Assembly (NCBI GenBank): GCA_049695975.1
Contig: JBAVTE010000027.1
Coordinates: forward strand, 32,972-96,971
Origin: Minisyncoccia bacterium
GTDB taxonomy: Bacteria > Patescibacteriota > Minisyncoccia > Phycocordibacterales > GWA1-40-21
Direction: 5' to 3'
Length of the DNA stretch: 64,000 nucleotides
The position numbers and the translations under genes were made by a program. Under the pieces are notes generated by a model that had not been told where the DNA came from, ran no database searches, and saw only the letters and a list, made by a program, of their open reading frames with translations. This document shows positions 3,380 through 55,219 of the stretch, in pieces; position 1 is the first letter of the stretch; the number at the start of each line of letters is the position of its first letter.

Positions 3380-3450
3380 CCTTGACTAGTAAAAATAGGC
3401 TGTAATTTGCTATCGAAAAATTTTCGATAAACTGATATAATTATTGTAGT

Positions 3451-4518
3451 ATGAAATCACAATCCTCAAAAATTAAAGTCGTTGATTTATTTTGTGGCAT
3501 TGGTGGACTGACACACGGTCTTATCAAGGAGGGTTTAGATGTGGTCGCAGGAATTGATAACGATTCAAGCTGTAAATTTGGATATGAATACAACAACAAG
3601 GCTCAATTTATTGACAGCGACATTCTTAAGGTAACACCAGACCAAATCAATAAATTATTTGGTACAAAAAAAGGCACGATCCGTGTTCTTGCTGGTTGTG
3701 CCCCTTGCCAGCCATTTTCAAGATTGAATCTAAAAAAAGTTACCGAAAAACAACTTGAACCTTTGGGTAAATTTGCTCAACTTATCGCGGCTATTCAGCC
3801 TGACATTGTCTCGATGGAGAATGTTAGTGGTTTAGCTGATACAAATAAATATCCCGTCTTTGCAAAATTTATAAAGACACTGGATGATAATGGGTATAAA
3901 TATAAATATGAAGTAGTAGATGTCTCAGAATTTGGCGTACCTCAAAAACGAAAACGATTAGTTTTACTGGCTTCAAAGTTTGGTGAAATTGAATTGATAA
4001 AAAGAACTCACAAAGATAAGCGAGTTACTGTTCGTGATGTCATCAAACACCTTGAACCAATCAAAGATGGTCAAACAAGCAAAAAAGACCCTCTTCATAA
4101 GGCAAGAAAACTTGATCAAATAAATCTTTATCGAATCAAGGCGACTCCGCACAATGGTGGAAACTCAGAAAGTTGGAGTGAAGATTTGATGCTTGCTTGC
4201 CACAAAAAAGCATCTGGGAAAACCTATCGGAGTACCGTATATGGCCGAATGAGATGGGATGAACCAGCACCGACTATGACAACGCAATGCATAGGTCTAG
4301 GGAATGGTCGTTTTGGTCACCCAACACAAAATCGTGCTATAAGTTTAAGGGAGGCCGCAATATTTCAAACATTCCCTGAAAATTATAAATTTACCGAGTC
4401 CGAAGACTCTATGGTGGTTACTAAAGTAGCAAAGTTTATTGGAAACGCAGTACCCGTAAGGCTGGGATCAGTCATTGGCAAGAGTATCAAGAATCACGTT
4501 AGACAATATGAAAAATAA
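3451..4518 (+). CDS. dcm: DNA (cytosine-5)-methyltransferase
   Basis: Motif I DLFCGIGG, motif IV GCAPCQPFS, motif VI ENV, motif VIII QKRKR, motif X GNAVPV. Confidence 0.9.
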   Translation: MKSQSSKIKVVDLFCGIGGLTHGLIKEGLDVVAGIDNDSSCKFGYEYNNKAQFIDSDILKVTPDQINKLFGTKKGTIRVLAGCAPCQPFSRLNLKKVTEKQLEPLGKFAQLIAAIQPDIVSMENVSGLADTNKYPVFAKFIKTLDDNGYKYKYEVVDVSEFGVPQKRKRLVLLASKFGEIELIKRTHKDKRVTVRDVIKHLEPIKDGQTSKKDPLHKARKLDQINLYRIKATPHNGGNSESWSEDLMLACHKKASGKTYRSTVYGRMRWDEPAPTMTTQCIGLGNGRFGHPTQNRAISLREAAIFQTFPENYKFTESEDSMVVTKVAKFIGNAVPVRLGSVIGKSIKNHVRQYEK

Positions 4519-6211: not shown

Positions 6212-6236
6212 AGTTTGGAGTCTTGATTAAAACAAC

Positions 6237-6416
6237 ATGTCCGACACCGACGATCCAATTAAAGACGAGCCAGATGAAGAAGCTCCGGACGAGGAAGTCG
6301 CCGAGCTTATGGAAACCCACGATCTCGATCAGGACACGGCCGAGCGTGTGCAGGAGATTATGGAAGATTTGGGTGTAGACGAGGACGACGCAGTCGAACT
6401 TGAGGAACTTCTTTAA
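6237..6416 (+). CDS. Small hyper-acidic protein (59 aa, about 45% Asp/Glu), absent from the ORF track
   Basis: ATG at 6237 and TAA at 6414-6416. Sequence is MSDTDDPIKDEPDEEAPDEEVAELMETHDLDQDTAERVQEIMEDLGVDEDDAVELEELL. Local GC is high. Confidence 0.45.
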   Translation: MSDTDDPIKDEPDEEAPDEEVAELMETHDLDQDTAERVQEIMEDLGVDEDDAVELEELL

Positions 6417-6426
6417 TTTATAGAAT

Positions 6427-7044
6427 ATGGAAATCTCAAAAGAAAGACTCGAAGAGTTAAGACAAATTTATAAAAAGGATTTTAATGCCGATCTTAGTGA
6501 TCAGGAATTGCACGATGCCGCTTTTAATCTTATTGGGTTTTATGACACGTTGTCAAAAATGGCATTTAAAGATATACAGAATCATCTGCGTTTGGAGAAA
6601 GAGCCGAACGGCTGGCCATTCACCGACAGTAGTGGTGACTGCAAATTTTGTGGTTACTATTTCGAGAAGAACGATTTTTGGTTTGATAAGTTCGGCTTTA
6701 AGTGTAAATTTTGCCAGAGAGCGGTCAATGACGGGATTATTCCCGGCGCAGTTTGTCGAAATAAGGAAAAATGGTTTTCTCTCGAAACTCTCAAGGAAAA
6801 ATTCGGCATTCATTCACAGACAGCTCGATCACTTATCAGAAAGGGAGAACTTAAGGCTCGGGTTATTTTAAACGATGCCGGCAAGCCACATTTTACGGTT
6901 TTTCTACGAGAAGAAAACTATAAATTTCTCAAGATTGGTAAAGACGTGCCGGTTAGCGAGCTTGAAGATTATGACTTGCAGGTGGCCAAATGGGCTGAGG
7001 ATTATAAAAAGAAAATGACCGAAGAACAGAAGTCTGGCAAGTAG
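6427..7044 (+). CDS. Hypothetical protein with Cys4 zinc-finger-like motif and possible HTH
   Basis: CKFCGYY...CKFCQ motif. The segment SLETLKEKFGIHSQTARSLIRKGELKA is helix-turn-helix-like. Higher GC than the host backbone. Confidence 0.5.
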   Translation: MEISKERLEELRQIYKKDFNADLSDQELHDAAFNLIGFYDTLSKMAFKDIQNHLRLEKEPNGWPFTDSSGDCKFCGYYFEKNDFWFDKFGFKCKFCQRAVNDGIIPGAVCRNKEKWFSLETLKEKFGIHSQTARSLIRKGELKARVILNDAGKPHFTVFLREENYKFLKIGKDVPVSELEDYDLQVAKWAEDYKKKMTEEQKSGK

Positions 7045-7573
7045 TCATATTTGCTTAACATTGCTTAACTTAAGCAAATCGTTTTAGGCTCTCAATTTTG
7101 GTCAAACCGGTGGGCTATGGTGAGGATGGTATCAAACGTCTACTCTTGATACAAAGCTCGCCCCAGGGGCAAACACGTGGCAGAAATCGGTGAGTTAAGT
7201 TCGGGCCCGGTTAGTTCCATTCACAAACTCGTAGAAATGGGATAAACTGTCATTATCTGGTAGCAAGCAGTGCTTCGTGAGCGATCTTGAGCTGATTCCA
7301 TTCGGCCAATTCTCGCAATATTTCGTTCCACCGGTTGCTTACCAAGTCCACATAAGTGAATTTCTCCGCGAAAATGAGTCCGCGCTCCGCGCGGTAATGG
7401 GAAGTTCGGCAAGAAAAGAAAAGGGCGTTTTGAAATCCACGGAGAGTGCGCTTGCGTGCAAATATAAGCAAGGACCGAAAAAGTAAGGACAGTCCTTGCT
7501 ACAGGATTATGTATTGCCATTTCTGGATTCTATCCAGAAACCGCCATATGTGTGTGCACATTACCATATAAAT

Positions 7574-11673: not shown

Positions 11674-11737
11674 ATCGTTGACGATAATTTATTTTGCAGT
11701 ATCATTGTACTAAGGTTTAACAATTAAATAAACAAAA
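11674..11737. repeat. 64-bp direct repeat, copy A, containing a promoter-like element (63/64 identical to 18301-18364)
   Basis: ATCGTTGACGATAATTTATTTTGCAGTATCATTGTACTAAGGTTTAACAATTAAATAAACAAAA. Contains TTGACG and TATCAT boxes and a near-palindrome ATCGTTGACGAT. Confidence 0.85.
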
Positions 11738-13748: not shown

Positions 13749-13926
13749 AACATTTTAATATATAAGATTATAACATTATGACCCATTTGACAATGGCAAC
13801 GCTTTACACTACCATATAGTGAGTTTAGTGTTCTTTGAGATACTCTAAAATACAGTTGAGGAAAAAGCCTGTTTCTACGGAATTTCAGCAAAAACCATCG
13901 AAATCTAACCATGAAAGGAGATGTTT

Positions 13927-14931
13927 ATGAGGATATTAATTCTGTATAATCTCGCCAAGATAGTTAAGAAAGGGATTACTAACGATCTGGTTTGTGAGAA
14001 GGAGATTGAAATCATCGTGCCTTTAATAGTTGATTCATTACTTGCACGAGGACATCAAGTTAAAACACTTGAAACAGATCGAAATGTTTGGGAAAAATTA
14101 AAAAAACTCAAACCTGAGATTGATATTGTTCTTAATTTAGCCGAAGGTTTTGGGGGATGTAACATAAACGAAACATTTGTGCCAGCATTATTAGAGGCAT
14201 TAGAGATTCCGTTTACTGGAGCTTCTTCCCGAAACATGATGTTTACGATGGATAAGGAAAAAACAAATCTTGTTTTAGGTGCTTACAATATACCTACACC
14301 TTGTCGAAAATTATTTAGACAAGGACAAAGTAAATTTATTGAGTTAGGTTTGAATTTTCCCGTCATCGTAAAACCCGTTAGAGAAGAGGCTAGTATCGGT
14401 ATTACTTATGATAGTGTCGTCTCAAATCACAAGGATCTTGTTGATAAAGTAGATCGTGTGTTTAAACTTTATCAACAATCGGCTCTTGTTGAAGAATTCA
14501 TAGAGGGTAGAGAAATCTCTGTAGGAATCATTGGAAATGGCACTAATGTCCATGTTTTTCCACCACTCGAGTTTATATTTGAAGATTCTATTCCTGTTTT
14601 AAAAAGAATTAGATCTTATGAATATAAATGGGATGGTGGAAAAGAAGCTATGACCAAAGCAAAGTTACCCGACGATTTGATTACTAAGTTACAGGAGTAT
14701 ACGAAAGTTGCTTACTTAGTAACGGATTGTCGGGATTATGCAAGGATGGATTATCGGTTGACGGATAAGAACGAAATATTTTTACTTGAAGTCAACTATA
14801 ATCCTGGAATTGGACCAAATACTCATGGTCTAAATAATACATTGACCATGATGGCAAGCTTTGAAGGTCATTCATTTGAGGATCTCATCGAATGGATTAT
14901 TTTCACAGCCAAGGAAAGATATGTTTCTTGA
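13927..14931 (+). CDS. ATP-grasp ligase, D-Ala-D-Ala ligase-like
   Basis: FPVIVKP, EEFIEGREISV and the Mg-binding LEVNYNPG motif. AAGGAG sits upstream. The start could be 13921 or 13927. Confidence 0.7.
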   Translation: MRILILYNLAKIVKKGITNDLVCEKEIEIIVPLIVDSLLARGHQVKTLETDRNVWEKLKKLKPEIDIVLNLAEGFGGCNINETFVPALLEALEIPFTGASSRNMMFTMDKEKTNLVLGAYNIPTPCRKLFRQGQSKFIELGLNFPVIVKPVREEASIGITYDSVVSNHKDLVDKVDRVFKLYQQSALVEEFIEGREISVGIIGNGTNVHVFPPLEFIFEDSIPVLKRIRSYEYKWDGGKEAMTKAKLPDDLITKLQEYTKVAYLVTDCRDYARMDYRLTDKNEIFLLEVNYNPGIGPNTHGLNNTLTMMASFEGHSFEDLIEWIIFTAKERYVS

Positions 14932-18300: not shown

Positions 18301-18364
18301 ATCGTTGACGATAATTTATTTTGCAGTATCATTATACTAAGGTTTAACAATTAAATAAACAAAA
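18301..18364. repeat. 64-bp direct repeat, copy B, immediately upstream of the CAP-domain gene start
   Basis: 63/64 identical to 11674-11737. Ends 3 nt before ATG 18367. Confidence 0.85.
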
Positions 18365-33479: not shown

Positions 33480-33487
33480 ACAAAAAA

Positions 33488-34120
33488 ATGTCAAAATTAA
33501 AAATAATTTACAATAAGGATTTCGATGTTAAACGGGTTATAAATACAATTAAAAAAATAGATTGGTTTGTTGAGAATAAATATGAATATAAGAAATTTTC
33601 ATTCCCAAAAGTATTAGACGTAGAAAAACTGAAAGATTATTCAGATGAAGAAATAGAAAATGCTGTTATATCTGAATATGATGAAGAAGTTTATAAAAAG
33701 AATGAAACTTTTTTAATTAATCATTGGTATAAAATATCAGAAGAAATAAAGAACAGTTTTTCAAAAAGCTCTATTCCTGTACAAAATGAATATATAATAT
33801 ATTTTACAAAATATGGTACAGGGGGTAGTTATAACCTACCAAATACTGTAATTATAAATTTAACTAGCCGTTGGGAGGTTGGAATGTTGAGAACGATAAT
33901 CCACGAGATTATTCATCTTGCTATAGAAGAAAATATAATTAAATATAAAATAGGGCAAGCACAAAAGGAAAGAATTGTAGACCTATTTTTCGTCTACAAT
34001 TTTCCAAGAAGAGTATATATGCAAAATGTTTATAATTCTACAAATACAGGAAAAATTGATCAAACATTTGATGATAATTTTCCTGACATGAATGCTGTTA
34101 TTGAAAAATCTTCCCAATAA
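33488..34120 (+). CDS. Hypothetical protein with HExxH motif
   Basis: HEIIHLAIEE. No other recognisable domain. Confidence 0.4.
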   Translation: MSKLKIIYNKDFDVKRVINTIKKIDWFVENKYEYKKFSFPKVLDVEKLKDYSDEEIENAVISEYDEEVYKKNETFLINHWYKISEEIKNSFSKSSIPVQNEYIIYFTKYGTGGSYNLPNTVIINLTSRWEVGMLRTIIHEIIHLAIEENIIKYKIGQAQKERIVDLFFVYNFPRRVYMQNVYNSTNTGKIDQTFDDNFPDMNAVIEKSSQ

Positions 34121-34161
34121 AGTTTGACCGTGCAATTATCAAAAAGAATAAATATATAAAT

Positions 34162-34575
34162 ATGCAAATAAAAGCTCAAGCAATAGTTTATAAAATAATA
34201 AAAGGAGAAATTTACTGTCTATGTTTAAAGAGATGTCTTTCGGATGGTGGTTTTTGGCATGTTATTACAGGTACTTTTGAAGATGCTGAGAACGATAAAT
34301 CATGTCTTCAGAGAGAAATTATGGAAGAACTTGGTGAGCAAAAAATTCTAAATATTTCCCCGAGGTTAAAGGAATGGATATGGAAGAAAAATAATGATGA
34401 TATTGTAATATATGATTATGCTCTTTGTTTGGATGATAATGATATTATTTTAAACGAAGAACATACTGAATTTGTTTGGCTAAAACCAGAAGAAGCCTAT
34501 AATAAATATGAAAAAACTTCCGCAAAAGAAATGATTAGTTTACTGAAAAATTATTTATTTCAAATTAATGAATAA
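34162..34575 (+). CDS. NUDIX hydrolase
   Basis: Nudix box GTFEDAENDKSCLQREIMEELG. Confidence 0.8.
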   Translation: MQIKAQAIVYKIIKGEIYCLCLKRCLSDGGFWHVITGTFEDAENDKSCLQREIMEELGEQKILNISPRLKEWIWKKNNDDIVIYDYALCLDDNDIILNEEHTEFVWLKPEEAYNKYEKTSAKEMISLLKNYLFQINE

Positions 34576-35382
34576 ATGCAAGATAATTACGAGAGATTAG
34601 GTGTATATTATAAAGCTATGAAAAAAAATAAAAAAATACATATTGCCGTTTTATTTGGTGGAAAATCGGCTGAACATGAAGTATCAATTAGGTCGGCACA
34701 AAGCATTTATAATGCTCTTGATAAGCAAAAATATGACATTACTCTTATTGGCATAGATAAAAATGGTGTTTGGATTCCTTTTAATACGGAGAAATTACTT
34801 TCCAGCAAGAGAATACTTTTGAGTGAACAAAATATGAATGTTAGCACAGCTGTAGCCTCTTATGGTACTAATGGAGAATTTTTAGCAAAGAAAGGTAATG
34901 GTGGTATGAAAAAAGTTGACATTGTCTTCCCGGTTCTTCACGGTCCTTTTGGCGAGGACGGCACAATTCAAGGTTTGTTAAAGTTAGCTAATGTCCCTTT
35001 TGTCGGAGCGGGTGTTCTAGGTTCGGCGGTTGGAATGGATAAAGATGTTGCGAAGAGACTTTTACGAGATGCCGGTCTACCGACTGCCCACTTTCATGTT
35101 TATAACGAATATGAGAAAAAAACTATTTCATTTGAAAAAATTAAGGTAAACCTTGGATTACCATTTTTTATTAAACCAGCAAATCTCGGATCTTCTGTTG
35201 GTATCACAAAGGTTCATAATAAAGCTGAATTTTTAAAGGCAATAAATTCTGCATTTCACTATGACAATAAAATCCTTATTGAGGAATATATAAGGGGCAA
35301 GGAAATTGAGTGTTCTGTATTAGGTAATGGAAAGCCAACCGCATCAGTTTGTGGGGAAATTATTCCTCATCAATCCTCCTAG
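34576..35382 (+). pseudogene. ddl: D-alanine-D-alanine ligase, C-terminally truncated (about 95 aa missing)
   Basis: N-terminal and central ATP-grasp domains are intact (VLHGPFGEDGTIQGLL, FIKPANLGSSVGI). It stops just before the expected FYDYEAKY/Mg-binding region, and the truncation coincides with the left edge of the inserted island. Confidence 0.6.
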
Positions 35383-35410
35383 GATAAATAAAGTTAGCAT
35401 CAGTATAGTC

Positions 35411-35476
35411 GGGTCCTTGCGCGTCTGAATTGATATATTTAATATTTCGATTCAGATTGCGCAAGGCCCTTTTTTT
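35411..35476 (+). terminator. Long-stem rho-independent terminator
   Basis: GGGTCCTTGCGCGTCTGAATTGA-loop-TCGATTCAGATTGCGCAAGGCCC followed by TTTTTTT. Confidence 0.7.
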
Positions 35477-35673
35477 ATATTTTTTTATTTTAATTTTTTC
35501 AACTTGGACATGTCATGTCCAAGTCTAATTATCAAGTCTAAACCTTGCTACGCCTTGTAATTCCTGCGGAGGCAGGAATCCATCTTCTCTTCATCCAATC
35601 TTTTTCCGTCTGTTATTGCGAGAAAGTTTCTGACGAAGCAATCAAGTATTTTATCTTCTGACCCTAAAAGTTC

Positions 35674-36270
35674 TTAGCAAGGAATTTCCTTGCTATGTGA
35701 ATTGGAATAGTCTAAAAGATTTTTAATTTCCTTAACATAATTTGGATTTGAAATATCATGGTCTGAGTTTGAAACAATTATTCTCTTTTTCTTACCTTTC
35801 CACAGATCAAAATATTTTTTGTCACCATTTGGAAATAAATCTTTTTCTTCTGAACCACATAAGAATATTGCAGGTGTTTTTGTATTATTAGGAAAATCTT
35901 GTTTTCTAAAAGCAGTAAACCTCCTCCTACCAAGAATTTTTTCTGCTATTTTTGGCAAAAAATTAATATCATTACTGAAATATGGAGATAAAGAACATAA
36001 AATTAGTTTTGAAAAAGTATGATATTTTGTGGACAATACTGCGATATATGCACCGAGAGAAAATGCTAGAATTATAGAGTCATTTTGATAATTTTTATCA
36101 ATAATTTTATTAAAGTCCTCTAGCCATCTTTCTATTGTATTCCATTTCCATTTTGGCTGATAGAATACAACATTATATTTTTTTGATTTTAAATACTCAA
36201 TAAAATCTAAATATGGAGCATCTCTTAAACTTTCACCAAATCCAGGAATGATATAAATTGTTTGTTTCAT
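35674..36270 (-). CDS. Alpha/beta-hydrolase fold protein
   Basis: Nucleophile elbow AFSLGAY and beta-strand start IYIIPGFGES. Start is ATG at 36270 or an upstream TTG at 36342. Confidence 0.65.
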   Translation of the reverse strand: MKQTIYIIPGFGESLRDAPYLDFIEYLKSKKYNVVFYQPKWKWNTIERWLEDFNKIIDKNYQNDSIILAFSLGAYIAVLSTKYHTFSKLILCSLSPYFSNDINFLPKIAEKILGRRRFTAFRKQDFPNNTKTPAIFLCGSEEKDLFPNGDKKYFDLWKGKKKRIIVSNSDHDISNPNYVKEIKNLLDYSNSHSKEIPC

Positions 36271-36370
36271 TGATAGTATTTTATCATATAAATAAAAAAG
36301 AGGTGATACTTTGCCTACTTTTTGAAATTTGAAATAAAACAAGTGTTTTTTCTGTGCATAACACCCCCCA

Positions 36371-36399
36371 TTGACGCTAATTTTACTATTTGTTACAAT
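36371..36399 (+). promoter_or_regulatory. Sigma70-like promoter (TTGACG-17-TACAAT) driving the precursor-peptide operon
   Basis: TTGACG at 36371-36376, 17-nt spacer, TACAAT at 36394-36399. Confidence 0.55.
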
Positions 36400-36472
36400 T
36401 TACAGTAGAAACCTTAGGTGTTCTAAGGTAGAGTAGGTTAGATAAGTTCATTAACAGAGAAAGGAGGTCTTT

Positions 36473-36592
36473 ATGCAGAGCCCAACTAAGAAGATGTTCA
36501 GTAAGAAAACGTTGAAGAACTCGTTTTTGCGGAGGAGGGTGTCTAGGGTCAGGTTGACTCAGGCCCTGAATGCCAGTAAGCCGGGAAGTTAA
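36473..36592 (+). CDS. 39-aa poly-cationic small ORF (candidate RiPP precursor peptide), absent from the ORF track
   Basis: AAAGGAGGT RBS lies 7 nt upstream. Sequence is MQSPTKKMFSKKTLKNSFLRRRVSRVRLTQALNASKPGS (net charge about +11). Directly followed by a hairpin, then the RRE/rSAM genes. Confidence 0.5.
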   Translation: MQSPTKKMFSKKTLKNSFLRRRVSRVRLTQALNASKPGS

Positions 36593-36612
36593 TCCCATAT
36601 TGGTGGTTGTCA

Positions 36613-36651
36613 GGTGGAACGCTCCGTATGAGCGTTCCACCTATTTTTTTT
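36613..36651 (+). terminator. Intrinsic terminator/attenuator between the precursor ORF and maturase genes
   Basis: GGTGGAACGCTC-CGTAT-GAGCGTTCCACC, a perfect 12-bp stem, followed by TATTTTTTTT. Confidence 0.75.
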
Positions 36652-36677
36652 GTTGTTTTTTGAATAAGGAGAATATC

Positions 36678-36887
36678 GTGAATGACAAATATGTAGCTCT
36701 TGTGGAAAACTTTACGTTGAAACAGTCTGTCACTTCTAGTGTCTTGTATTGTCTGAAGAGTGGTGCAATTTATGATCTTTCATTAGATCAAGTCGAGTTC
36801 TACATTTACTTGATGGATCTCAGACTATTGATCAGGTTATTGATAAATACCATAGGAAATCTAGATCCACAGTTGTACAGTTTCTAA
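36678..36887 (+). CDS. PqqD-like RRE (RiPP recognition element) N-terminal fragment, frame-shifted relative to the downstream rSAM
   Basis: GTG start with AAGGAG RBS. YCLKSGAIYDLSLDQVEFYIY matches the PqqD/RRE core. The family continuation (LDGSQTIDQVIDKYHRKSRSTVVQFLNHL) is in the -1 frame, contiguous with ORF 36893. Confidence 0.5.
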   Translation: MNDKYVALVENFTLKQSVTSSVLYCLKSGAIYDLSLDQVEFYIYLMDLRLLIRLLINTIGNLDPQLYSF

Positions 36888-38056
36888 ACCACTTGAAAGG
36901 TATTCAGGCACTGAGACTAATCAACAAACCTGTGCCAAGATTAATGCGACAAAATCTGGTACCTGATAGCCGACTCGAATCAGTTCATTTGGAAGCGAGC
37001 GGTGAATGTAACATGAAGTGTGTTCATTGCTACCAAGCAAAGTATGTCAAATCTGGTGAAAAACTTAATCACCGTGAGATTATACTTCTTCTTGATCAGC
37101 TACAGAATATGCAGGTTAGTAATGTTGGAATCAGTGGTGGTGAACCACTAATGATGCCTGATCTTACGGAAGTTATGAGAGCTATTGAAGCGAGAGATAT
37201 GAGAATCTCAGCTCTCTTTACAAATGGCCTTCTGGTCGACGACAAGTTAATCAAGGAGACGAATGCACTGCGAAGTAAGTTCTCATTCTTCATTAGCCTA
37301 GACTCGATTCCAGGACAGACACTTGCTTTCCGTGGAGTAGGGAAAAGAGCATCTAGGGTGATTCTTGAGCGGATAGTTTCAAAGATTAGGTTGTTAATTT
37401 CCAGCGGTATCAGTGTTGTCATCAATACTGTCGTAAATCTGGAAAATATCAGCTATCTTGATAAGATGTATGATTTGGTTACTGAGCTGAAAGTTGACAG
37501 TTGGAGGCTCGGTTTTCCAAAGATGACACCTGAATTCAAGAAACACAAGAATGGTTTCTATGTTGAATGGAATAGTATTGCTGAACACTGTTTGTCCTTG
37601 CTTCAGCGGCATTTGATAGGAGGCTTACCATTTCATCTGCAGATTGAGTATTTGTTCAGGGAAGAACTCTTTAAACAGGGTATACAAGAGCTATCTGACA
37701 TGGACTTTGTCTGTGATTACGAGGGTCGTCGTTCTGAGTGTTGTGTAAAGCCCAATGGAGATGTCGTCTCTTGTGCGTACTGTTCCGAGTTACCATTGGG
37801 TAACATCAGGAAGTCGTCGATTTGGGATATTTGGTATTCAACTCAAATGAGTGATTTGAAAAAGATCCAGATCAACGACGTGGTAGAGTGCAGGGGATGT
37901 GAGCTTCGTAGTCTTTGCGGAACTGGTTGCCGTGCGAATGCTCACTTTCTTCATGGAGATTTTCACAATGCTAAAGATGATTACGCTTGTTTAGCGGTAG
38001 CTTTCTTTAAGGAGAAAGTGGTCCCTCTTTTGAGGAAGTACAGTATGATTAGTTGA
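36776..38056 (+). CDS. Radical SAM/SPASM-domain peptide-modifying enzyme, with the RRE C-terminal half in-frame upstream of the annotated ATG 36893
   Basis: rSAM cluster CNMKCVHC (CX3CX2C). SPASM cysteines CAYC...CRGCELRSLCGTGC (CX2CX5CX3C). Frame open from 36776. Confidence 0.75.
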   Translation, partial: SFIRSSRVLHLLDGSQTIDQVIDKYHRKSRSTVVQFLNHLKGIQALRLINKPVPRLMRQNLVPDSRLESVHLEASGECNMKCVHCYQAKYVKSGEKLNHREIILLLDQLQNMQVSNVGISGGEPLMMPDLTEVMRAIEARDMRISALFTNGLLVDDKLIKETNALRSKFSFFISLDSIPGQTLAFRGVGKRASRVILERIVSKIRLLISSGISVVINTVVNLENISYLDKMYDLVTELKVDSWRLGFPKMTPEFKKHKNGFYVEWNSIAEHCLSLLQRHLIGGLPFHLQIEYLFREELFKQGIQELSDMDFVCDYEGRRSECCVKPNGDVVSCAYCSELPLGNIRKSSIWDIWYSTQMSDLKKIQINDVVECRGCELRSLCGTGCRANAHFLHGDFHNAKDDYACLAVAFFKEKVVPLLRKYSMIS

Positions 38057-38152
38057 TCTTTTGACACACAAGGTATAATAAAATGCCCACTTTGAAAAAA
38101 GTGGGCATTTATTGTTTGCATTAAGATAAATAATGATTACAATGTACATTAT

Positions 38153-38890
38153 ATGAATAATTATAAAAACTTTTCAAAATATTATGACATGGCTATGGGT
38201 GACAGAACGGCAGAGGGTATATTTATTAAGAAATTAATAAAACAGTATAATTCGAAGGCAAAGACTGTATTAGAATTGGGCTGCGGTACAGGAGCCTTTC
38301 TTAAATATCTCTCAAATCATGGCTATAAAATGGCAGGAATTGATTTATCACAGGAGATGCTAGAAATTGCAAGACAGAAGGTTCCGAATGCTAATCTGTT
38401 ATGTCAAAATATGGCAATTTTTTCCTTGCAATTAAAATTTGATGTTGTTTTGTGTTTATTTGATTCAATAAATCACTTAATTGATTATAATGATTGGGAA
38501 AAGGTTTTTCTCCAGACATATCTACACTTGAATGATAGTGGTTTATTTATCTTTGACATTAATACAAAATCAAAACTAGATATACTTGCAGGGTCCGATC
38601 CAATTGTTAATGAAGTGGATAATAAAATAATTTCTATGAAAGTAATTTTGAAAAATAATATTTATAATTGGAATATTAAAATAGTTGAAAAACAACCAAA
38701 TGATAGCGAAATGATATATTTAGAAAATATTCAAGAACAATCATTTCCAATATCAATGATAGAAAAATCGCTCAAGAAAAATTTTGAAAAGGTTATTAAG
38801 ATTAGTCAAAGTGGTATGCAAGCAACTGAAAATTCTCGACGGGTATACTTCATTTGCCTTAAGAATTTAGAAAATAAATTGAAGAGGTAA
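38153..38890 (+). CDS. Class I SAM-dependent methyltransferase
   Basis: Motif I VLELGCGTGAF and motif II CLFDSINHL. Confidence 0.75.
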   Translation: MNNYKNFSKYYDMAMGDRTAEGIFIKKLIKQYNSKAKTVLELGCGTGAFLKYLSNHGYKMAGIDLSQEMLEIARQKVPNANLLCQNMAIFSLQLKFDVVLCLFDSINHLIDYNDWEKVFLQTYLHLNDSGLFIFDINTKSKLDILAGSDPIVNEVDNKIISMKVILKNNIYNWNIKIVEKQPNDSEMIYLENIQEQSFPISMIEKSLKKNFEKVIKISQSGMQATENSRRVYFICLKNLENKLKR

Positions 38891-38922
38891 TTGGAGTCAG
38901 CCATGCTCTGTAGAAAACACCC

Positions 38923-39258
38923 CTAATAAACAGGCAACACAATCATAATGTTGTGTGTCAAAACCTTTAGAGCCATTTCTCGGCATTGACACCAATATGT
39001 TTTAGAAAGAATTGACTCAGACAGATTCCGTTTCAGCATACTCATCACTGTTTCCGATTGCCATCTCTGACCATATTCCCCCTTGTCGAAATGTTCTACT
39101 ATTTCCCTTCGATATTTTCCGCTAGGCAGTTTCTTTTTTGGACGTCCTATTTTTGGATTAATAATTGAGTGTATCTGCAGTTTTTCTCGTGAATAGACAT
39201 GATTAGATTCACTATCATAACCAGCGTCGGCCGTGATTGTTTTAATGGGAAATTACTA
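38923..39258 (-). pseudogene. IS4/IS5-superfamily DDE transposase, C-terminal fragment only
   Basis: Minus-strand translation gives TITADAGYDSESNHVYSREKLQIHSIINPKIGRPKKKLPSGKYRREIVEHFDKGEYGQRWQSETVMSMLKRNL...VLPVY*. No start codon; stops lie directly upstream. Confidence 0.6.
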
Positions 39259-39263
39259 TATTT

Positions 39264-39295
39264 CATGGCAAGGTCAGACCTTGCCATTTTTTTTA
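39264..39295. repeat. Perfect palindrome CATGGCAAGG-tcaga-CCTTGCCATG plus T8, member of the GCAAGG/CCTTGC hairpin family
   Basis: Related copies at 41523-41545 (TCATGGCAAGGattgtCCTTGAT), 35695-35715 and 7469-7500. Confidence 0.6.
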
Positions 39296-39401
39296 CGACT
39301 GTCATTCCCGCGGAGGCGGGAATCAAGAATAGTTTTATTATTAAGGTTAAGCCTTGCCACGCCTTATTTCTTTTTTTACCATTTATATATATAATAAATA
39401 A

Positions 39402-40310
39402 ATGAAAATAAACAATTCAAATGAAGATGTTTCGATTGGGGTGATTGCTCCAGCACGGCCGATTTATAATATTCAAAAAGAAATCGACGATGGAATTACC
39501 GAAATAAAGAGTTTTGGTTTTAATGTTAAAAAAAGTAACAATTTGAATAAAAAATTGTTTTATTCAGCAGGAACTGTCGAAGAACGCGTGTCCGATATTC
39601 ATGAAATGTTTTCTGATAAAAAAGTCAAAGCTATTATATGTGCTACAGGTGGTGCCAGTTCTAACCAATTAATAGAACATCTAGATTTTGATTTAATAAA
39701 GAAAAATCTTAAAATATTTATGGGATATAGTGATATTACCGCTTTACTGCTTGCAATCAACAAAAAAACTAGCATGCCTACATTTTATGGTCCCATGATT
39801 AGAGACTTTGCTGGTTTAACAGATGAAGCTAAAAAATTTACAGAAGATTTACTGAAAGGAAAGAGTAAAAATTTAAATTATCTACAACCATACAAAACAT
39901 TACGAAAGGGTAAGGTTCGAGGTAAACTAGTCGGCGGAGTACTGACTGTATTTAATAGTTTGTTGGCTACACCATATATGCCAGATTTAAAAGGGAAAAT
40001 TCTTTTTTGGGAAGAGGTTGGCACTTGTCCGGCACAGATTGATTTTTTATTACAGGAATTAAAATTGGCTGGAGTGTTTAAGAAAATTAAAGGAATGGTG
40101 GTTGGATATCTATCAGATTGTACGGATAAGAAATATCCGCAAGACAATCGTTCCATTGATGAAATTATTTTAGGGCGAACTAAAGGTTTTGATTTTCCAA
40201 TAATTAAAGTTGATTATTTTGGTCATGATGTAAAAAACTTTCTTGCTATTCCGATTGGTACAGAAGCAATCATAGATACAAATAAAAAGATTTTTTCTGT
40301 TAAATTATAA
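39402..40310 (+). CDS. S66-family LD-carboxypeptidase (LdcA/MccF-like)
   Basis: IGVIAPARP N-terminus and nucleophile motif GYSDITALL. Confidence 0.75.
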   Translation: MKINNSNEDVSIGVIAPARPIYNIQKEIDDGITEIKSFGFNVKKSNNLNKKLFYSAGTVEERVSDIHEMFSDKKVKAIICATGGASSNQLIEHLDFDLIKKNLKIFMGYSDITALLLAINKKTSMPTFYGPMIRDFAGLTDEAKKFTEDLLKGKSKNLNYLQPYKTLRKGKVRGKLVGGVLTVFNSLLATPYMPDLKGKILFWEEVGTCPAQIDFLLQELKLAGVFKKIKGMVVGYLSDCTDKKYPQDNRSIDEIILGRTKGFDFPIIKVDYFGHDVKNFLAIPIGTEAIIDTNKKIFSVKL

Positions 40311-40459
40311 AAATAGGCTTATTTTTTGTCCGCTCCTGAGTAATATGTAATTATCAAGGCTAAAAAAAGCCTTGCTACGCCTCACCCAATACAAGAAAAA
40401 CACTTTAGTTGACAATTACTTGACAATTGAATACAGATTGGTTTACAATAGAGTAACCT

Positions 40460-41512
40460 ATGAAAAACAAGGAAAAGATATTGGATTTAATAAACAAAAG
40501 TGGAAAGATTACCACTTCGGAAATCACGGCCAAACTGGGCTTTTCTCGCCAGTATGTGAGTTTGATTATTTCTATGCTTGTTACTGAAAAATCTGTAATA
40601 AAATTTGGCGGAACCAACGGTGCTTTTTATGTCTCTTTTTCATACGCAAAAGAGCATCCTGAAGTTTTTCCGTCTTCATTTAAAAAAACATACAAAAATA
40701 TTTCACTTGAGGAGCATAATGTTTTGACTGAGATTGAAGAAAAATTTCCTCAATTAATAGACTCGTCTGAAAATGTTAAGAGCATTTTTGCTTTTGCTTT
40801 TTCTGAAATGTTTAATAATGCTATTGAACACTCACAAACAAAAACAATTTCTATAGAAATAGCGATGAGAAACAAAAAGCTTTCATTTGTTGTTTTGGAT
40901 TCTGGAGTTGGAGTCTTCCGCAATATTATGAAAAAGAAAGGGTTGAATTCCGAGATAGAAGCTATACAAGACTTATTGAAAGGAAAGACTACTACTATGC
41001 CAAAGTCACATTCTGGTGAAGGAATCTTTTTCACATCAAAATCAGCCGATGTATTTATTTTAGATAGTTTTGGCAAACAACTCACAGTAAATACAAAAAC
41101 AGAGGGTGTGTCAATAAATAATACTTCCATTATCAAAAGGGGTACGAAAGTAATATTTGAAATAGATGTGAATTCTGATAAACATCTAAATCAAGTATTT
41201 AAAAAATATACAAATCTAACTAACGAAAGCGACTACGGGTTTGATAAGACAGAAATACGAGTAAAATTATATACCATGGGTGGGGTTCATATATCACGTT
41301 CACAAGCACGCAGGATTCTTTCTGGTCTAGAAAAATTTAAAATAATTTTATTGGATTTTGAAAATGTTCCAGTTGTTGGTCAAGCTTTTGCAGATGAGAT
41401 ATATAGAGTTTTTCAGTATAAATATCCAGATATCAAAATTGAAGAAGAAAATATGTCTGCGGGTGTTCGCTTTATGATTGAAAGGGCAAAAAATGAGGCA
41501 AAGAGTAAATAG
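40460..41512 (+). CDS. Putative regulator: N-terminal wHTH, RsbW-like GHKL ATP-binding domain, C-terminal STAS-like (DUF4325-like) domain
   Basis: HTH ITTSEITAKLGFSRQYVSLII. FSEMFNNAIEHS...VVLDSGVG. C-terminus KIILLDFENVPVVGQAFADEI. Confidence 0.5.
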   Translation: MKNKEKILDLINKSGKITTSEITAKLGFSRQYVSLIISMLVTEKSVIKFGGTNGAFYVSFSYAKEHPEVFPSSFKKTYKNISLEEHNVLTEIEEKFPQLIDSSENVKSIFAFAFSEMFNNAIEHSQTKTISIEIAMRNKKLSFVVLDSGVGVFRNIMKKKGLNSEIEAIQDLLKGKTTTMPKSHSGEGIFFTSKSADVFILDSFGKQLTVNTKTEGVSINNTSIIKRGTKVIFEIDVNSDKHLNQVFKKYTNLTNESDYGFDKTEIRVKLYTMGGVHISRSQARRILSGLEKFKIILLDFENVPVVGQAFADEIYRVFQYKYPDIKIEEENMSAGVRFMIERAKNEAKSK

Positions 41513-41636
41513 CTAGAATAATTCATGGCAAGGATTGTCCTTGATATTTATTACCACAGTTGTCACTTGATTTATATTTTAGACAGAATACAATTGTATA
41601 TGGATTAGATTATTTTAATGCTTTTTTTAAGAAAAG

Positions 41637-42074
41637 ATGGTGAGTGTGAAAACTATCATCAGTCATCATGTTAGAATTAATCTAAAAGGAAACGGCGAAT
41701 TTGAAAAATGGCTTGTTGAAGAAACTTTTGATCTTGGTGCATATATAACAGCCCAAACTGATTGGGCCTTGAAGTGTCCATATAACAGAAATGGAGTTAA
41801 AGAAAGATATGGATGGGATGATGCAAAACTAGATGCAAACCCCAAAATAGCCGTTGCTTACTTCATTGAACAACATGGCAATGACTGGTTTAGGGATAAC
41901 CGAAGATCAAAATTCATTACAACAAAACAAGTTCTGCTTGATTGTTCCGATCAAAATTGTCCTTTTTCTATAATTCAGGATATCTGTAAAAGATGTCCTG
42001 ATTGCAAAGTTGCAAAACTTGGAATTGTACCGGAAAATATTTTAGATTTTTCCGAAATTTCTTGTGCAAAATAA
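41637..42074 (+). CDS. Hypothetical Cys-rich protein
   Basis: ORF with CxxC pairs near the C-terminus. Confidence 0.4.
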   Translation: MVSVKTIISHHVRINLKGNGEFEKWLVEETFDLGAYITAQTDWALKCPYNRNGVKERYGWDDAKLDANPKIAVAYFIEQHGNDWFRDNRRSKFITTKQVLLDCSDQNCPFSIIQDICKRCPDCKVAKLGIVPENILDFSEISCAK

Positions 42075-42088
42075 TAAGAAAGGATGTC

Positions 42089-42125
42089 ACCGCGGGTATC
42101 ATACTATGATACCCGCGTTTTTTTA
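42089..42125 (+). terminator. Rho-independent terminator
   Basis: CACCGCGGGTATCATACTATGATACCCGCGTTTTTTT. Confidence 0.8.
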
Positions 42126-42143
42126 TTATGATATAATTTTTAT

Positions 42144-44633: not shown

Positions 44634-45440
44634 CTACATCAATCTTCTGATAACTTGAATTCGATGTTCGAGTTTCTTACAAAAGCTTTCAGAAAAACGC
44701 TCTGAGCGAAAAATGGAGTTAACCATTTGTTCGTTTGAAAGATTTTTACTATGCTTTAATGAGTGTTCAACAAACATCGACCATATCGCATTTAATGCTA
44801 ATTTTGTGTTGCAAGAATCAAAAAGTATTTCTGAAGTAAGGAATTTTGTACCAAGGGCACTCAACTTGTCCTTATTTTTTGAAAAAATTCTTGCTTCAAC
44901 AATTAACACATCTGAATTTGCGATTGTACCATAGATATGTGGATAAATAATCTTTACATACTTTCGGTGCTTAAATGACCATTGAGTATCCTTAATAATA
45001 CGAGACTGTCCAATAGCTGCAATGTTTCGTATCGGCTTTACCGAACCATGTTTGGAACAAAGAATTTCAAGAACATCATTACACATTACCCGAAATCCAA
45101 TTTTGACTCCATTTACTTGTCCATACATGCGACAAATTTCATAGCTTCCATCTAATACGGCATAGAGATGATTTTTATCAATCTGAAGTCTAGTAAGAAA
45201 AACTTTTTCGACTTGATTAATAAAATTATCTAGATCGATAGTTCGAGGAATTATAATCATTAAGTCTATATCGTCAAATTTTCCACACCTTTTTCGGTTA
45301 TACCCGTAACATGAACTTCCATATACAAGAATAGAGAAATTTATACAAAACATTCTTGCATTCATTTTGAATAGAGCCACCATTTTCCTTATCAATTGAT
45401 ATCGTTTATATGGTGGAAAGAACAAAAAACCATTATTCAC
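44634..45440 (-). CDS. Nucleotidyltransferase-fold protein (ANT/Lnu-like candidate)
   Basis: GSSCYG...KFDDIDL matches the Pol-beta NTase G[SG]-x(n)-D-x-D motif. A likely internal start (MVALFK) is at 45383. Confidence 0.5.
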   Translation of the reverse strand: MNNGFLFFPPYKRYQLIRKMVALFKMNARMFCINFSILVYGSSCYGYNRKRCGKFDDIDLMIIIPRTIDLDNFINQVEKVFLTRLQIDKNHLYAVLDGSYEICRMYGQVNGVKIGFRVMCNDVLEILCSKHGSVKPIRNIAAIGQSRIIKDTQWSFKHRKYVKIIYPHIYGTIANSDVLIVEARIFSKNKDKLSALGTKFLTSEILFDSCNTKLALNAIWSMFVEHSLKHSKNLSNEQMVNSIFRSERFSESFCKKLEHRIQVIRRLM

Positions 45441-45542
45441 AGTGCACCTCTTTTTTGATTTGTTTAAAGAACACTTGTAAATAATACACTAAAAACATAG
45501 AATGTCAATTGTAAGAGTAGATCTAATTGATATAATTACAAA

Positions 45543-46259
45543 GTGAGAATTAAAATAATTACCCTGATGAGCTTAAATTTATGGCGGTTTTATGATTGGG
45601 AAAAGAGGTTGCCAAATATAATTTCTATCATTAATGAAATTAAACCAGATATTATTTTCACTCAGGAAACACAGCTTAATATTTCCATAGATCAAAGAAA
45701 TCAAGTGGAAATACTGAATGAATTTATAAAATATCCACATACATATTTTGCTCAAGCGTGTGTGAAAACGACTCGTAAAGGCGTGCCTTTGCCAAACCCA
45801 GTGGATCATGGACTCGGAATATTTAGTAAATTTCCGTTTAAACCAGAAATAATAAAATTAAAACAAGCAGTAGATGATAAAGAGAAAAGAATTGTAGTGA
45901 ATTGTGATATGAAAATAGACGGAGAAGATTATACAATCTCTGGAGTTCATTTCTCAAATTCTGATGCTTGGTCAGAAGCACATTTTAAAGAGACACTCGA
46001 GATTTATAAAAAAAGAAACATAAAACCAATTCTTGCAGGAGATTTTAATATCAAAAATTTTGGGCAGTATAAAACCCTGTATGAGAATTCATATCGACTA
46101 TCGAGCGACGAATTTTCTTATCTTTCATATCCGAAAGATGGTGTATCATATGATTATGTTATGATACCGAAACAATATGAGTTTATTGATTTTCAATGTC
46201 GTGATGAATATGTATCTGATCATCGAATGATTACAACAAAAATCAAGTTATTAAAATAA
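45543..46259 (+). CDS. Endonuclease/exonuclease/phosphatase (EEP) family protein
   Basis: N-terminal LNLW...DIIFTQE and C-terminal SDH motifs. Confidence 0.7.
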   Translation: MRIKIITLMSLNLWRFYDWEKRLPNIISIINEIKPDIIFTQETQLNISIDQRNQVEILNEFIKYPHTYFAQACVKTTRKGVPLPNPVDHGLGIFSKFPFKPEIIKLKQAVDDKEKRIVVNCDMKIDGEDYTISGVHFSNSDAWSEAHFKETLEIYKKRNIKPILAGDFNIKNFGQYKTLYENSYRLSSDEFSYLSYPKDGVSYDYVMIPKQYEFIDFQCRDEYVSDHRMITTKIKLLK

Positions 46260-46315
46260 TAATATTCCTGCTTTCATTTTCTCGTCTCAATCTAAAAGGT
46301 GTCTACGCACAACAA

Positions 46316-46352
46316 CGGAGGGTGTTGAGTTCAGTACTCAGCACCCTCTTTT
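46316..46352 (+). terminator. Rho-independent terminator
   Basis: GAGGGTGTTGAGTTCAGTACTCAGCACCCTCTTTTTTTT. Confidence 0.75.
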
Positions 46353-46406
46353 TTTTGTGTCCATAGGTTAAATAACTCCTTTATGTTTTTCTTTGGACTA
46401 AATGTT

Positions 46407-47125
46407 TCATCTATATCTTTGTTCATATGCTTTTGCACATTCATGATAATAGAAAATACGTGCGAGATCGTAATCAGAATCACCCCATTCAGCAAATTCC
46501 CAATCAAGTACTCCAGTCAAATGGTGTTGGTCAGTAAGGAGATTATGTATAATTAAATCACCATGAACAAGAGAAGGTGTTGTTTCACTAAAAACTTTTT
46601 TAGTATTATCTTCGAGTAATATGCTGGATATTTCTTTAATTATATCCTCAACTTCCGTAAATTCTTTAATTTTTAAAATTTTTGTTTCTAAACCATCAAT
46701 CAAGAATTGCCAATATTTATTGTATGAATTTCCATTATTTACAGAATAAAATTCCTTTTCTTTGATTGATTTAATATTAATTAAAAATTTGATAATGTCA
46801 TCAATAATACTATCCTTGTCTTGATTATTAAGAAATTTCCATACTGAATCAATTGTTTGCCCAGATAAACGATTTTCTATCATAACTGGAATATTTTCAA
46901 CTTCTCCCAGCCAAATTATTTGAGGAATAAGTTCCCGTTTAATTTTTGAAGAAGATTAGCTTCTCTTCGTAATAATTCAGGTTCGTCGTCTCTAAAACGG
47001 ACAACATAATTGTCAGAAATAAAAACTTTAAAACGTGTACCGGAAGAAACTGGTAAAAAGTTTTCCTTATTAAACTTTGTCATCAGTGTCTTAATCTTTT
47101 TTAATCTATTAAAATATTTGTCCAT
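46407..47125 (-). pseudogene. APH/choline-kinase-family phosphotransferase split into two ORFs by a frameshift
   Basis: N-lobe ORF 46916-47125 and C-lobe ORF 46407-46883 (LVHGDLIIHNLL, DWEFAEWGDSDYDLA) lie in different frames. Confidence 0.6.
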
Positions 47126-54980: not shown

Positions 54981-55116
54981 CATCTCTGTTGTTGCAATTG
55001 CAAAGAATGAAGCAATCCAGATTTTTGTAATGTTTTAGATTGTTTATTCGGAATATCTCCTTCGCAAATACGGATGATTCTGGATCCCCGCATTCACGAG
55101 GATGACAGAGAAGAAG

Positions 55117-55170
55117 TGTCACTTAGACATAACATGTCTAAGTGACGAATATCAAGACTTAGTCTTGATA
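55117..55170 (+). promoter_or_regulatory. Tandem perfect palindromes upstream of dnaK (candidate heat-shock operator)
   Basis: GTCACTTAGACAT-aac-ATGTCTAAGTGAC (13-bp arms), then TATCAAGAC-tta-GTCTTGATA (9-bp arms), 50-100 nt upstream of dnaK ATG 55220. Confidence 0.5.
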
Positions 55171-55219
55171 AAAGAATGACAGAGGAAAGAATTTATTAAA
55201 TATTAATTAAAAAATAAAT

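Follow-up and report, generated by a model that had tools for sequence, protein, structure and literature searches.

The question addressed here is what the short hairpin-forming sequences are that lie around two genes, ldc (LD-carboxypeptidase) and a putative regulator gene, in a 64,000-nucleotide stretch of a Minisyncoccia genome (GenBank assembly GCA_049695975.1, contig JBAVTE010000027.1, positions 32,972 to 96,971), referred to below as the window. A first-pass annotation of the window had taken them either for elements resembling repetitive extragenic palindromic (REP) sequences or miniature inverted-repeat transposable elements (MITEs), or for recombination sites that mediate the gain and loss of gene cassettes. 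We think it rather probable that they form a local pile-up of REP-class non-coding palindromic repeats, belonging to two families that we call h and c/p, in this Minisyncoccia (Parcubacteria/candidate phyla radiation, CPR) genome. Four observations carry this reading: the identities of the families, the compensatory changes in their stems, the copies at non-orthologous sites in sister genomes, and the location of the repeats in the spacers of an 8.6-kb block.

Exact-match searches confirmed each of the three motif classes that the annotation had placed here (individual copies are named as in Table 1). The motif CCTTGCYACGCCT occurs exactly at 35543, 39352 and 40370, on the + strand throughout; together with a 2-mismatch match at 56998 the observed count is four, which was reached in none of 100 dinucleotide shuffles. 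The sequence ATTCCYGCGGAGGCRGGAAT is present exactly at 35560 and 39304, with an expectation of 0 and no further site with up to three mismatches, and its two copies are alike except for one stem pair, with the compensatory change C:G to T:A. The pattern CAAGG-N(2-14)-CCTTG matches four sites in the 64 kb (35678, 39269, 40355 and 41529; 0.4 expected), all of them between 35678 and 41543. When single-stranded DNA folding was compared with that of shuffled controls, c3, p1, p2, h1, h2 and the palindrome at 35502 were far more stable than the controls. Two details had to be corrected: the palindrome reported at 35695 exists but spans 35675-35697, and the GCAAGG-loop-CCTTGC palindrome reported at 41523 does not have that form, as the 3' arm of the hairpin at 41529 is CCTTGA.

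The locus contains a truncated gene, a fragment of an insertion sequence (IS) and a segment of foreign GC content, and the source is a metagenome-assembled genome (MAG), all of which would suit a chimeric cluster, produced in assembly or binning by the joining of pieces at short repeats. This is extremely unlikely. An independent Logan contig (SRR28012095) is identical to the window over 18,765 bases across the repeat region (18.7 kb, including all junctions), and therefore the repeat arrangement is not an assembly artefact. Moreover, both flanks are syntenic with sister genomes, and the longest exact stretch noted between repeat copies, the 13-nt CCTTGCTACGCCT in c1 and c3, is probably too short to mislead an assembler.

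Family h is represented by three copies in the window, which share with four copies in sister and related genomes an 8-bp stem starting with an A-T and a T-A pair and a 4-nt loop. This architecture is known from Neisseria, where dRS3 is ATTCCC-N8-GGGAAT and the longer NTS is CGTCATTCCCGCGMAVGCGGGAATCYRG (PMC11893778). Di Nocera et al. (2013) classed dRS3 among the CGTC-1 REPs (PMC3733652), in which the tag is CGTC, often TGTC, the 8-bp stem begins with A-T and T-A, the loop has 4 nt and the tail is CCA (PMC3733652). The NTS is the target of the single-stranded DNA (ssDNA) nuclease Ssn, a single-domain GIY-YIG protein (cd10448) whose gene is often flanked by the repeat; no base matters more for SsnA binding than the C directly after the palindrome, and ssDNA cleavage is governed by the three bases preceding the palindrome (PMC11893778). 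In h2, positions 39304-39323 are an exact dRS3 palindrome, and the copy agrees with the NTS consensus at 25 of 28 positions (three mismatches). The h1 (ATTCCT...AGGAAT) and h3 (ATCCTC...GGGGAT) palindromes are compensated variants that the literal dRS3 pattern does not match, and h3 matches the published degenerate pattern of Ssn-related motifs (SRM). The tag is TGTC in h2 and h3 and one base off (TGTA) in h1; the tail is CCA in h1 and h3 and CAA in h2; and a C directly follows the palindrome in all three. As far as the sequence allows a judgement, family h is of the CGTC-1/dRS3/NTS kind by every structural criterion testable here: it has the (C/T)GTC tag, the stem, the loop, the C after the palindrome and a CCA-like tail (PMC3733652, PMC11893778). 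It differs from the described members in its host, Patescibacteria/CPR being covered in neither of these two papers, and in the GGAG loop, besides the CAA tail of h2 and the TGTA tag of h1.

Aligning the h copies of the window and of relatives with the Neisseria NTS consensus gave the invariant positions G T. A T. C ... G G. A T C. In this alignment, 98% of the stem cells pair, compared with 23-58% in slid controls, and double-sided changes are found in four of the eight pairs, with pairs 1 and 2 invariant AT/TA; these pair counts are biased upward, as the instances were chosen as hairpins. A covariance model built from the same alignment (R1) scores h1 to h3 at 42-45 bits and nothing else in the window significantly. 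In 1.43 Mb of other loci, the only matches with E < 0.01 were sites in the loci L081 and L184, three of which are training sequences, and two untrained copies in the gammaproteobacterial locus L124 (30-35 bits). A further three untrained copies, scoring 43-46 bits, are present in the sister locus L190. Beyond the window, R1 thus has matches in a gammaproteobacterium and a further Parcubacteria MAG besides the sister Minisyncoccia. Their density is modest in comparison with CGTC-1/NTS elements: three copies (plus two weak long variants) per 64-kb window here, and about one per 7 kb in the sister (six strong copies in the 43 kb of L184 and L190).

The sister species, which were found via AlaRS (80-84% identity), show that the repeats do not keep to the same places. 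In L184, a copy upstream of dnaK (20184-20223) has the position and orientation of h3. The ABC and FtsX genes, abutting in the window, are separated in L184 by a 52-nt spacer that another h-type copy fills, and one more stands after FtsX, with the long-loop unit known from behind h1 coming next. Two CGTC/NTS-like hairpins of L190 (16142-16177 and 13413-13448) lie in frame inside called genes for ArgRS and an FAD-binding protein, where they encode the peptides ...EEMDSVLQRNDRGEN... and ...MDSGLRRNDRKEEGNDRG..., respectively; such in-frame intragenic copies in a sister species recall the palindromic elements (RPEs) of Rickettsia. In L081, a MITE-like unit (11086-11237) directly follows an intact ddl and encloses two inverted CGTC-type hairpins between 17-bp terminal inverted repeats, GTCAGACTGTCTAAAAA. 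The sister loci L186-L189 contain no h-type copy, so that the repeat load differs between close lineages. A search of the paper library used here yielded no description of such repeats in Patescibacteria. The annotation's reading as REP/MITE-like elements is borne out by the structure of h, by the REP-like build of c/p and by the presence of both families at other loci in sisters. Terminal inverted repeats and target-site duplications, which define a MITE, do not surround the c/p or h units in the window.

The second family, c/p, had been described as two separate classes, the 'ATCAAG...CCTTGCyACGCCT' copies and the 'GCAAGG' palindromes. Both are real, but they are one family in two orientations. 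The core CCTTGCYAYG has six exact sites in the window and no other (35543+, 35688+, 39264-, 39352+, 40370+ and 41524-). Read on the opposite strand, the c copies are (A)GGCGT[AG]G-CAAGG-loop-CCTT[GA]ATAAT, and the 'GCAAGG' palindromes read TTCAT[AG]G-CAAGG-loop-CCTTG. In an alignment of nine members, 89% of the stem cells pair (16-43% in slid controls) with double-sided changes in four of nine pairs, figures that lean upward since the members were picked as hairpins. The stems comprise 10 bp in p2, 9 in p1, 7 in c3 and 6 in p3, and only 4 bp in c1 and c2, which is no different from shuffled sequence. Outside the window, L184 contains a strong copy (19354-19381, from 19351) between grpE and an extra convergent gene; it is 96% identical to p2 over 28 nt, with a compensatory A:T to G:C end pair. 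A weak relative at L184 9330-9356 (from 9323) overlaps the end of an Mrr-like gene, at the junction of the window's insertion.

REPs of the GTAG type have an unpaired terminal GTAG (GYAG, GYRG, GTRG, GTMG and GTGG being allowed) and a stem of 6-13 bp. Judged against them, c/p is a lineage-specific hairpin that is built like a GTAG-tagged REP and may belong to that kind, with the defining head in half of the copies: GTAG in c1 and c3, GTGG in c2, ATAG in p1, and ATGG in p2 and p3. Further likenesses to GTAG REPs and their tyrosine transposases (RAYTs) are the short GC-rich stem in an AT-rich spacer, the occurrence as single copies and as inverted pairs 20-100 nt apart (p2...c2), the location mostly after genes, and one copy (p1) that supplies a stop codon. 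In contrast to GTAG REPs, the ATGG/ATAG heads of p1-p3 are partly paired, loops reach 8-16 nt, and there is an extra conserved 3' flank, ATAATTA on the head-first strand, that is undescribed for known families.

Some look-alikes of the c/p motifs were set aside. A tRNA origin of the c motif was rejected, as the look-alike in L173 is only a T-arm-like fragment. The 12-nt match to TTCATGGCAAGG inside mnmA of L186 and L187 was left uncounted, because the protein is just as long as its orthologues and hence contains no insertion; the mnmA coding sequence there reads TTCATGGCAAGGT-tca-ACCTTG (L186 526-540, L187 5540-5554), with 12 nt in common with p2 and p3, probably by coincidence.

Could the c/p hairpins be ordinary intrinsic terminators or mRNA-end hairpins, alike through local duplication or convergence and not mobile? 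Most c/p copies lie downstream of a gene, p1 is at a gene end, p2 is a textbook hairpin followed by T8 (10 pairs), p3 is a weak terminator-like site, and the L184 relative of p2 has a T-run on the minus strand between convergent genes. However, c1, c2, c3, h1 and h2 fail the intrinsic-terminator pattern; a T-run is missing from both strands of c1, c2 and c3, and c2 and c3 are located upstream of the next gene's promoter. The hairpin of c1 and c2 is degenerate although the flanking 10-nt and 13-nt sequences are exact, and the sister regulator locus has an unrelated hairpin at the place of p3 and no c sequence at that of c3. Plain terminators therefore fit p2, and partly p3 and p1, but not c1-c3, and as an account of the whole family we regard them as unlikely.

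Table 1. Repeats, palindromes and relevant genes of the window (positions in the window; loops in lower case).
Feature	Positions	Strand	Description
c1	35527..35555	+	AATTATCAAG-tctaaa-CCTTGCTACGCCT; minus strand GTAG + CAAGG; degenerate hairpin
c2	39337..39364	+	ATTATTAAGG-ttaag-CCTTGCCACGCCT; minus strand GTGG + CAAGG; 38 nt upstream of ldc ATG
c3	40349..40382	+	AATTATCAAGGCT-aaaaaa-AGCCTTGCTACGCCT; 7-bp stem, -6.2 kcal/mol; between ldc and regulator
p1	35675..35697	+	TAGCAAGGA-att-TCCTTGCTA + TG; overlaps stop codon of minus-strand hydrolase gene
p2	39264..39295	-	ATGGCAAGGT-cag-ACCTTGCCAT, then T8 on + strand; canonical intrinsic-terminator shape
p3	41524..41547	-	minus strand TATCAAGGA-caa-TCCTTGCCATG
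Diverged c-like copy	7467..7503	+	AGCAAGGAC-(16 nt)-GTCCTTGCT + ACA; non-coding, just after restriction-modification island
Symmetrical c-family relative	55150..55170		TATCAAGAC-tta-GTCTTGATA
h1	35556..35582	+	CGTC-1/NTS-like REP, TGTA-ATTCCTGC-ggag-GCAGGAAT-CCA; degenerate tag
h2	39300..39327	+	CGTC-1/NTS-like REP, TGTC-ATTCCCGC-ggag-GCGGGAAT-CAAG
h3	55080..55107	-	CGTC-1/NTS-like REP upstream of dnaK, TGTCATCCTCGTGAATGCGGGGATCCAG
Probable long-loop CGTC-type variant	35607..35650	+	GTTATTGC-(inner hairpin)-GAAGCAATCAAG; weak model score
Probable long-loop CGTC-type variant	54983..55024	+	upstream of dnaK; counterpart L184 20098-20139
Palindrome P'	35502..35524		ACTTGGACAT-gtc-ATGTCCAAGT; directly before c1
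Palindrome P	55118..55146		GTCACTTAGACAT-aac-ATGTCTAAGTGAC; relative of P' with compensatory changes; directly before TATCAAG hairpin
Lineage-specific mosaic block	33480..42143	+	between PDDEXK_1 (ends 33479) and UDG-alaS (UDG starts 42144); absent from sisters
Truncated ddl	34576..35382	+	homology stops at 35364, residue 248 of 364
Radical-SAM/SPASM maturase gene, frameshifted	36678..38056	+	GC 0.42 vs about 0.32 around
IS4/IS5-type DDE transposase, C-terminal 109 codons	38923..39252	-	cut off 12 nt from p2
LD-carboxypeptidase (ldc)	39402..40310	+	between c2 and c3
wHTH-HATPase-DUF4325 protein (regulator)	40460..41512	+	between c3 and p3

The repeats of the main cluster lie in the spacers of a lineage-specific block. 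The backbone of the sisters in this region is MnmA - Mrr-like - (PDDEXK_1) - (UDG) - AlaRS - two unknown genes - IF1 - S13 ... GrpE - small open reading frame (ORF) - DnaK. The block holds a 210-aa ORF, a NUDIX gene, the truncated ddl, a minus-strand hydrolase gene, the frameshifted radical-SAM/SPASM gene, a methyltransferase gene, the transposase fragment, ldc, the gene for a winged helix-turn-helix (wHTH)-HATPase-DUF4325 protein (the regulator) and a 145-aa ORF. Of these, ldc and the regulator gene are conserved in Patescibacteria, with hundreds to thousands of homologues at 60-80% identity, and in relatives they are found in quite different neighbourhoods. For this reason, the block is, by comparison of the genomes, best described as a mosaic that rearrangement has put together; some of its DNA is foreign, and decay can be seen. 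The missing C-terminal part of ddl, which would have proved an insertion into that gene, does not occur in the window. Among the reference genomes, the best Ddl relative is in a Parcubacteria MAG (68% identity, without synteny), and the c motif is present in none of 80 loci around Ddl relatives in reference genomes. A c/p copy is present in four of six spacers inside the region compared with one of 31 elsewhere, a post hoc comparison that uses a rough gene list.

The annotation had also noted that the repeats sit at the edges of modules, and this holds: they are located in the spacers of the mosaic block, about 20-40 nt outside the ldc and regulator homology. The DNA homology of ldc to the relative L161 covers 39383-40312, between the end of c2 (39364) and the start of c3 (40349). 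That of the regulator gene to the sister L190 covers 40404-41502, including 56 nt of promoter, and c3 ends 21 nt before it (40382) and p3 starts 20 nt after it (41524).

This arrangement raises the possibility that the direct c copies are att-like or cassette sites of a site-specific recombinase and that the modules between them are mobile cassettes. The c1-c3 copies are indeed direct repeats with sharp edges that bracket single modules, homology to the relatives' loci ends close to them, and the block is absent from sister genomes; like the attC sites of integron cassettes, they are imperfect palindromes 3' of single genes in one orientation. Yet the window contains no integrase or recombinase and neither intI nor attI, and the c copies have no attC-type RYYYAAC/GTTRRRY core (R/L core sites). 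Moreover, ldc and the regulator gene are conserved Patescibacteria genes with promoters of their own; the relatives' copies have no c sites, and the contexts of the ldc relatives show no synteny. The same family also occurs inverted (p2, p3) and singly (7467, 55150), and scans of viral contigs and JGI metagenomes found no c-flanked unit elsewhere. We therefore consider cassette sites very unlikely, and a role of the repeats in cassette gain and loss, as originally proposed, was not shown: besides the missing recombinase and the repeat-free ldc and regulator loci of relatives, the block borders themselves carry none of the repeats. The statement that the repeats match neither attC nor CRISPR repeats stands, with no GTTRRRY core or integrase and with c copies spaced 3809 and 1018 nt apart with genes between them, compared with the regular spacers of about 25-40 nt in a CRISPR array.

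In c1 and c2 the sequence rather than the fold is conserved, which would be expected if the c sites were operators for a DNA-binding protein such as the adjacent wHTH-HATPase-DUF4325 protein. In line with this, that protein has a wHTH domain, and c3 is about 40 nt upstream of the TTGACA promoter of its gene (TTGACA-18-TACAAT). However, the sister locus in L190 keeps this promoter (the 56 conserved nt) and has no c sequence upstream. The distances between c copies and promoters are inconsistent as well, and c1 faces a convergent gene end. An operator function is accordingly hard to credit.

Returning to the reading as a pile-up of REP-class repeats, a second, smaller cluster with the same repeat vocabulary is present upstream of dnaK (54983-55186). 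The probable long-loop variant next to h1 is homologous to the unit after the REP at L184 3623-3655. Palindrome P and the MITE-like unit of L081 have the heptamer TTAGACA in common. Readings of the palindromes as dif/Xer-type or CIRCE-type sites were rejected by eye, as sequences and spacings do not fit, and CGTCTGAA, which resembles a DNA uptake sequence and lies in the terminator after ddl, was treated as a chance occurrence. The h copies are grouped with other repeats in intergenic regions of mosaic structure, which recalls the intergenic mosaic elements (NIMEs) of Neisseria. Like NIMEs and the bacterial interspersed mosaic elements (BIMEs) of Escherichia coli, unrelated modules (h, c/p, P and the long-loop variant) are strung together in spacers in varying order, next to genes that are not the same in the relatives. 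With three to five modules, as counted in the 64 kb, the clusters are much smaller than those of NIMEs and BIMEs.

How the repeats would have reached these places can be outlined only conditionally. Both families may spread as non-autonomous elements whose single-stranded hairpins are acted on by an enzyme from another part of the genome. The enzyme of family h would be an Ssn-type GIY-YIG nuclease, with spread or upkeep as proposed for NTS/SRM elements; c/p might depend on a RAYT-like Y1 enzyme, in keeping with the proposal for GTAG REPs. Copies of the p2 type, with a hairpin and T8, would in addition act as terminators. The repeats may accumulate in spacers because insertions are tolerated there, and their density might reflect repeated breakage and joining at the locus. 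In this process the hairpins could have been a cause, by microhomology or by a nuclease nicking ssDNA, or mere passengers, or they could have settled there afterwards; that they contribute to the shuffling through ssDNA nicks or microhomology is speculative.

Several results count against a pile-up of REP-class repeats. As to enzymes, the 64-kb window contains no integrase, recombinase or Y1/RAYT gene (Pfam on the main ORFs) and no Ssn-type GIY-YIG gene, and hence no ssnA homologue (regex, and Pfam on the main ORFs), and about 90 kb of sister loci contain no Ssn-type GIY-YIG, Y1/RAYT or recombinase gene either, so that the proposed enzymes are hypothetical for this lineage. In their absence from the window and the sister loci, both families differ from the known systems. 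As to structure, h1 and h2 fail the strict NTS/SRM patterns, of which the NTS search allows at most one mismatch (first loop base G, CAA tail, and tag TGTA in h1). Three of the six c/p heads start with A instead of the conserved G of GTAG REPs, and the head is base-paired in p1 and p2. The hairpins of c1 (-0.9 kcal/mol) and c2 (-2.0 kcal/mol) have no thermodynamic significance, with z at about -0.3 to -0.5, and as their flanks are exact, what is conserved there is the sequence and not the fold. The upward bias of both alignments must be added to this. As to distribution, eight c/p copies in 64 kb with six of them within 6 kb are atypical of a dispersed REP family, and the outer borders of the block (33480; 42075-42143) lack these repeats and have only an ordinary terminator at 42091. 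Neither did wider searches reveal c/p elements: scanning viral contigs for AARCCTTGCYACGCCT gave 78 single matches, none with hairpin context, and TATCAAG-N(3-13)-CCTTGCYACGCCT had 18 matches in JGI metagenomes, on unrelated GC-rich contigs and in about the number expected by chance. Many of the viral matches are (GCCNN)n pentamer arrays or conserved coding sequence; such arrays (GCCTT GCCAC GCCTC ...) were noise in the motif scan of viral (IMG/VR) contigs, among them L005, L016, L025, L056 and L057. A distant blastn search of a plasmid collection with the whole region gave no match, and Rfam, at gathering and at permissive thresholds, nothing relevant in the repeat region.

With regard to candidate enzymes in other genomes, GIY-YIG genes in the CPR loci L104 and L116 were rejected, as no h-type hairpins flank them. 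A 284-aa Y1 (IS200-like/RAYT-like) transposase is encoded in an unrelated Patescibacteria contig (L165, 784-1638), between inverted repeats of 26 bp, GGGGTCAGGTCTTTACATTTAACATT.

Most descriptions of REP-type hairpins and of the Ssn/NTS pair concern Proteobacteria, and here the same CGTC-1 hairpin is found nearly base for base in CPR bacteria. In these bacteria with tiny genomes, hairpin copies differ in place between sisters, even inside essential genes. Should a cognate nuclease be present, the lineage would offer a second, very distant setting for testing whether hairpins of this kind gate the recombination of imported DNA. Minisyncoccia and other Parcubacteria are thought to depend on DNA uptake. 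It is conceivable, but quite doubtful, that they carry an Ssn/NTS-type system in which a GIY-YIG nuclease encoded elsewhere cuts imported ssDNA at the CGTC hairpins beside accessory modules and so determines which pieces recombine, that the CAAGG repeats are a second, as yet undescribed REP family with an enzyme of its own, and that the two together drive the shuffling of modules and in-frame insertions such as that in argS. For annotation, the hairpins matter in two ways: they yield spurious small ORFs (with '...IPAEAGI...' and '...RLRGND...' peptides), and they mark spacers where gene order is unreliable.

Some further features of the window were recorded. Within the block, the frameshift of the radical-SAM/SPASM gene is near 36805-36890, and the N-terminal part continues in another frame. 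A second Ddl-like ATP-grasp gene, apparently complete and 27% identical to the relative's Ddl, is present at 13921-14931 and may cover for the truncated ddl (34576-35382). Positions 1-7044 form a restriction-modification/defence island (GC 0.40-0.45 vs about 0.32 elsewhere) with genes for HsdR, a YgjP-like peptidase, a C5 cytosine methylase and a HATPase_c_3 protein, and the c-like hairpin lies just after it. A second extra block that is absent in sister genomes directly follows alaS (44634-46883); it contains a 268-aa minus-strand ORF and the genes for an Exo_endo_phos protein and a truncated minus-strand APH-type kinase.

Two longer repeats were also observed. A 64-nt repeat (11674-11737 and 18301-18364, 98% identical) is promoter-like (TTGACG-17-TATCAT) with a leader; its second copy abuts the ATG of a CAP-domain gene, and the first, downstream of the terminator of PPDK, is followed by no gene on the + strand. 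A perfect 55-nt direct repeat (21951-22005 and 22122-22176, 116 nt apart) includes a hairpin with a 12-bp stem, and its first copy starts in the last 15 nt of a tRNA-Val(CAC) gene (21891-21965); its appearance is that of an att-type duplication or of a scar that an element left on integrating at the 3' end of the tRNA.

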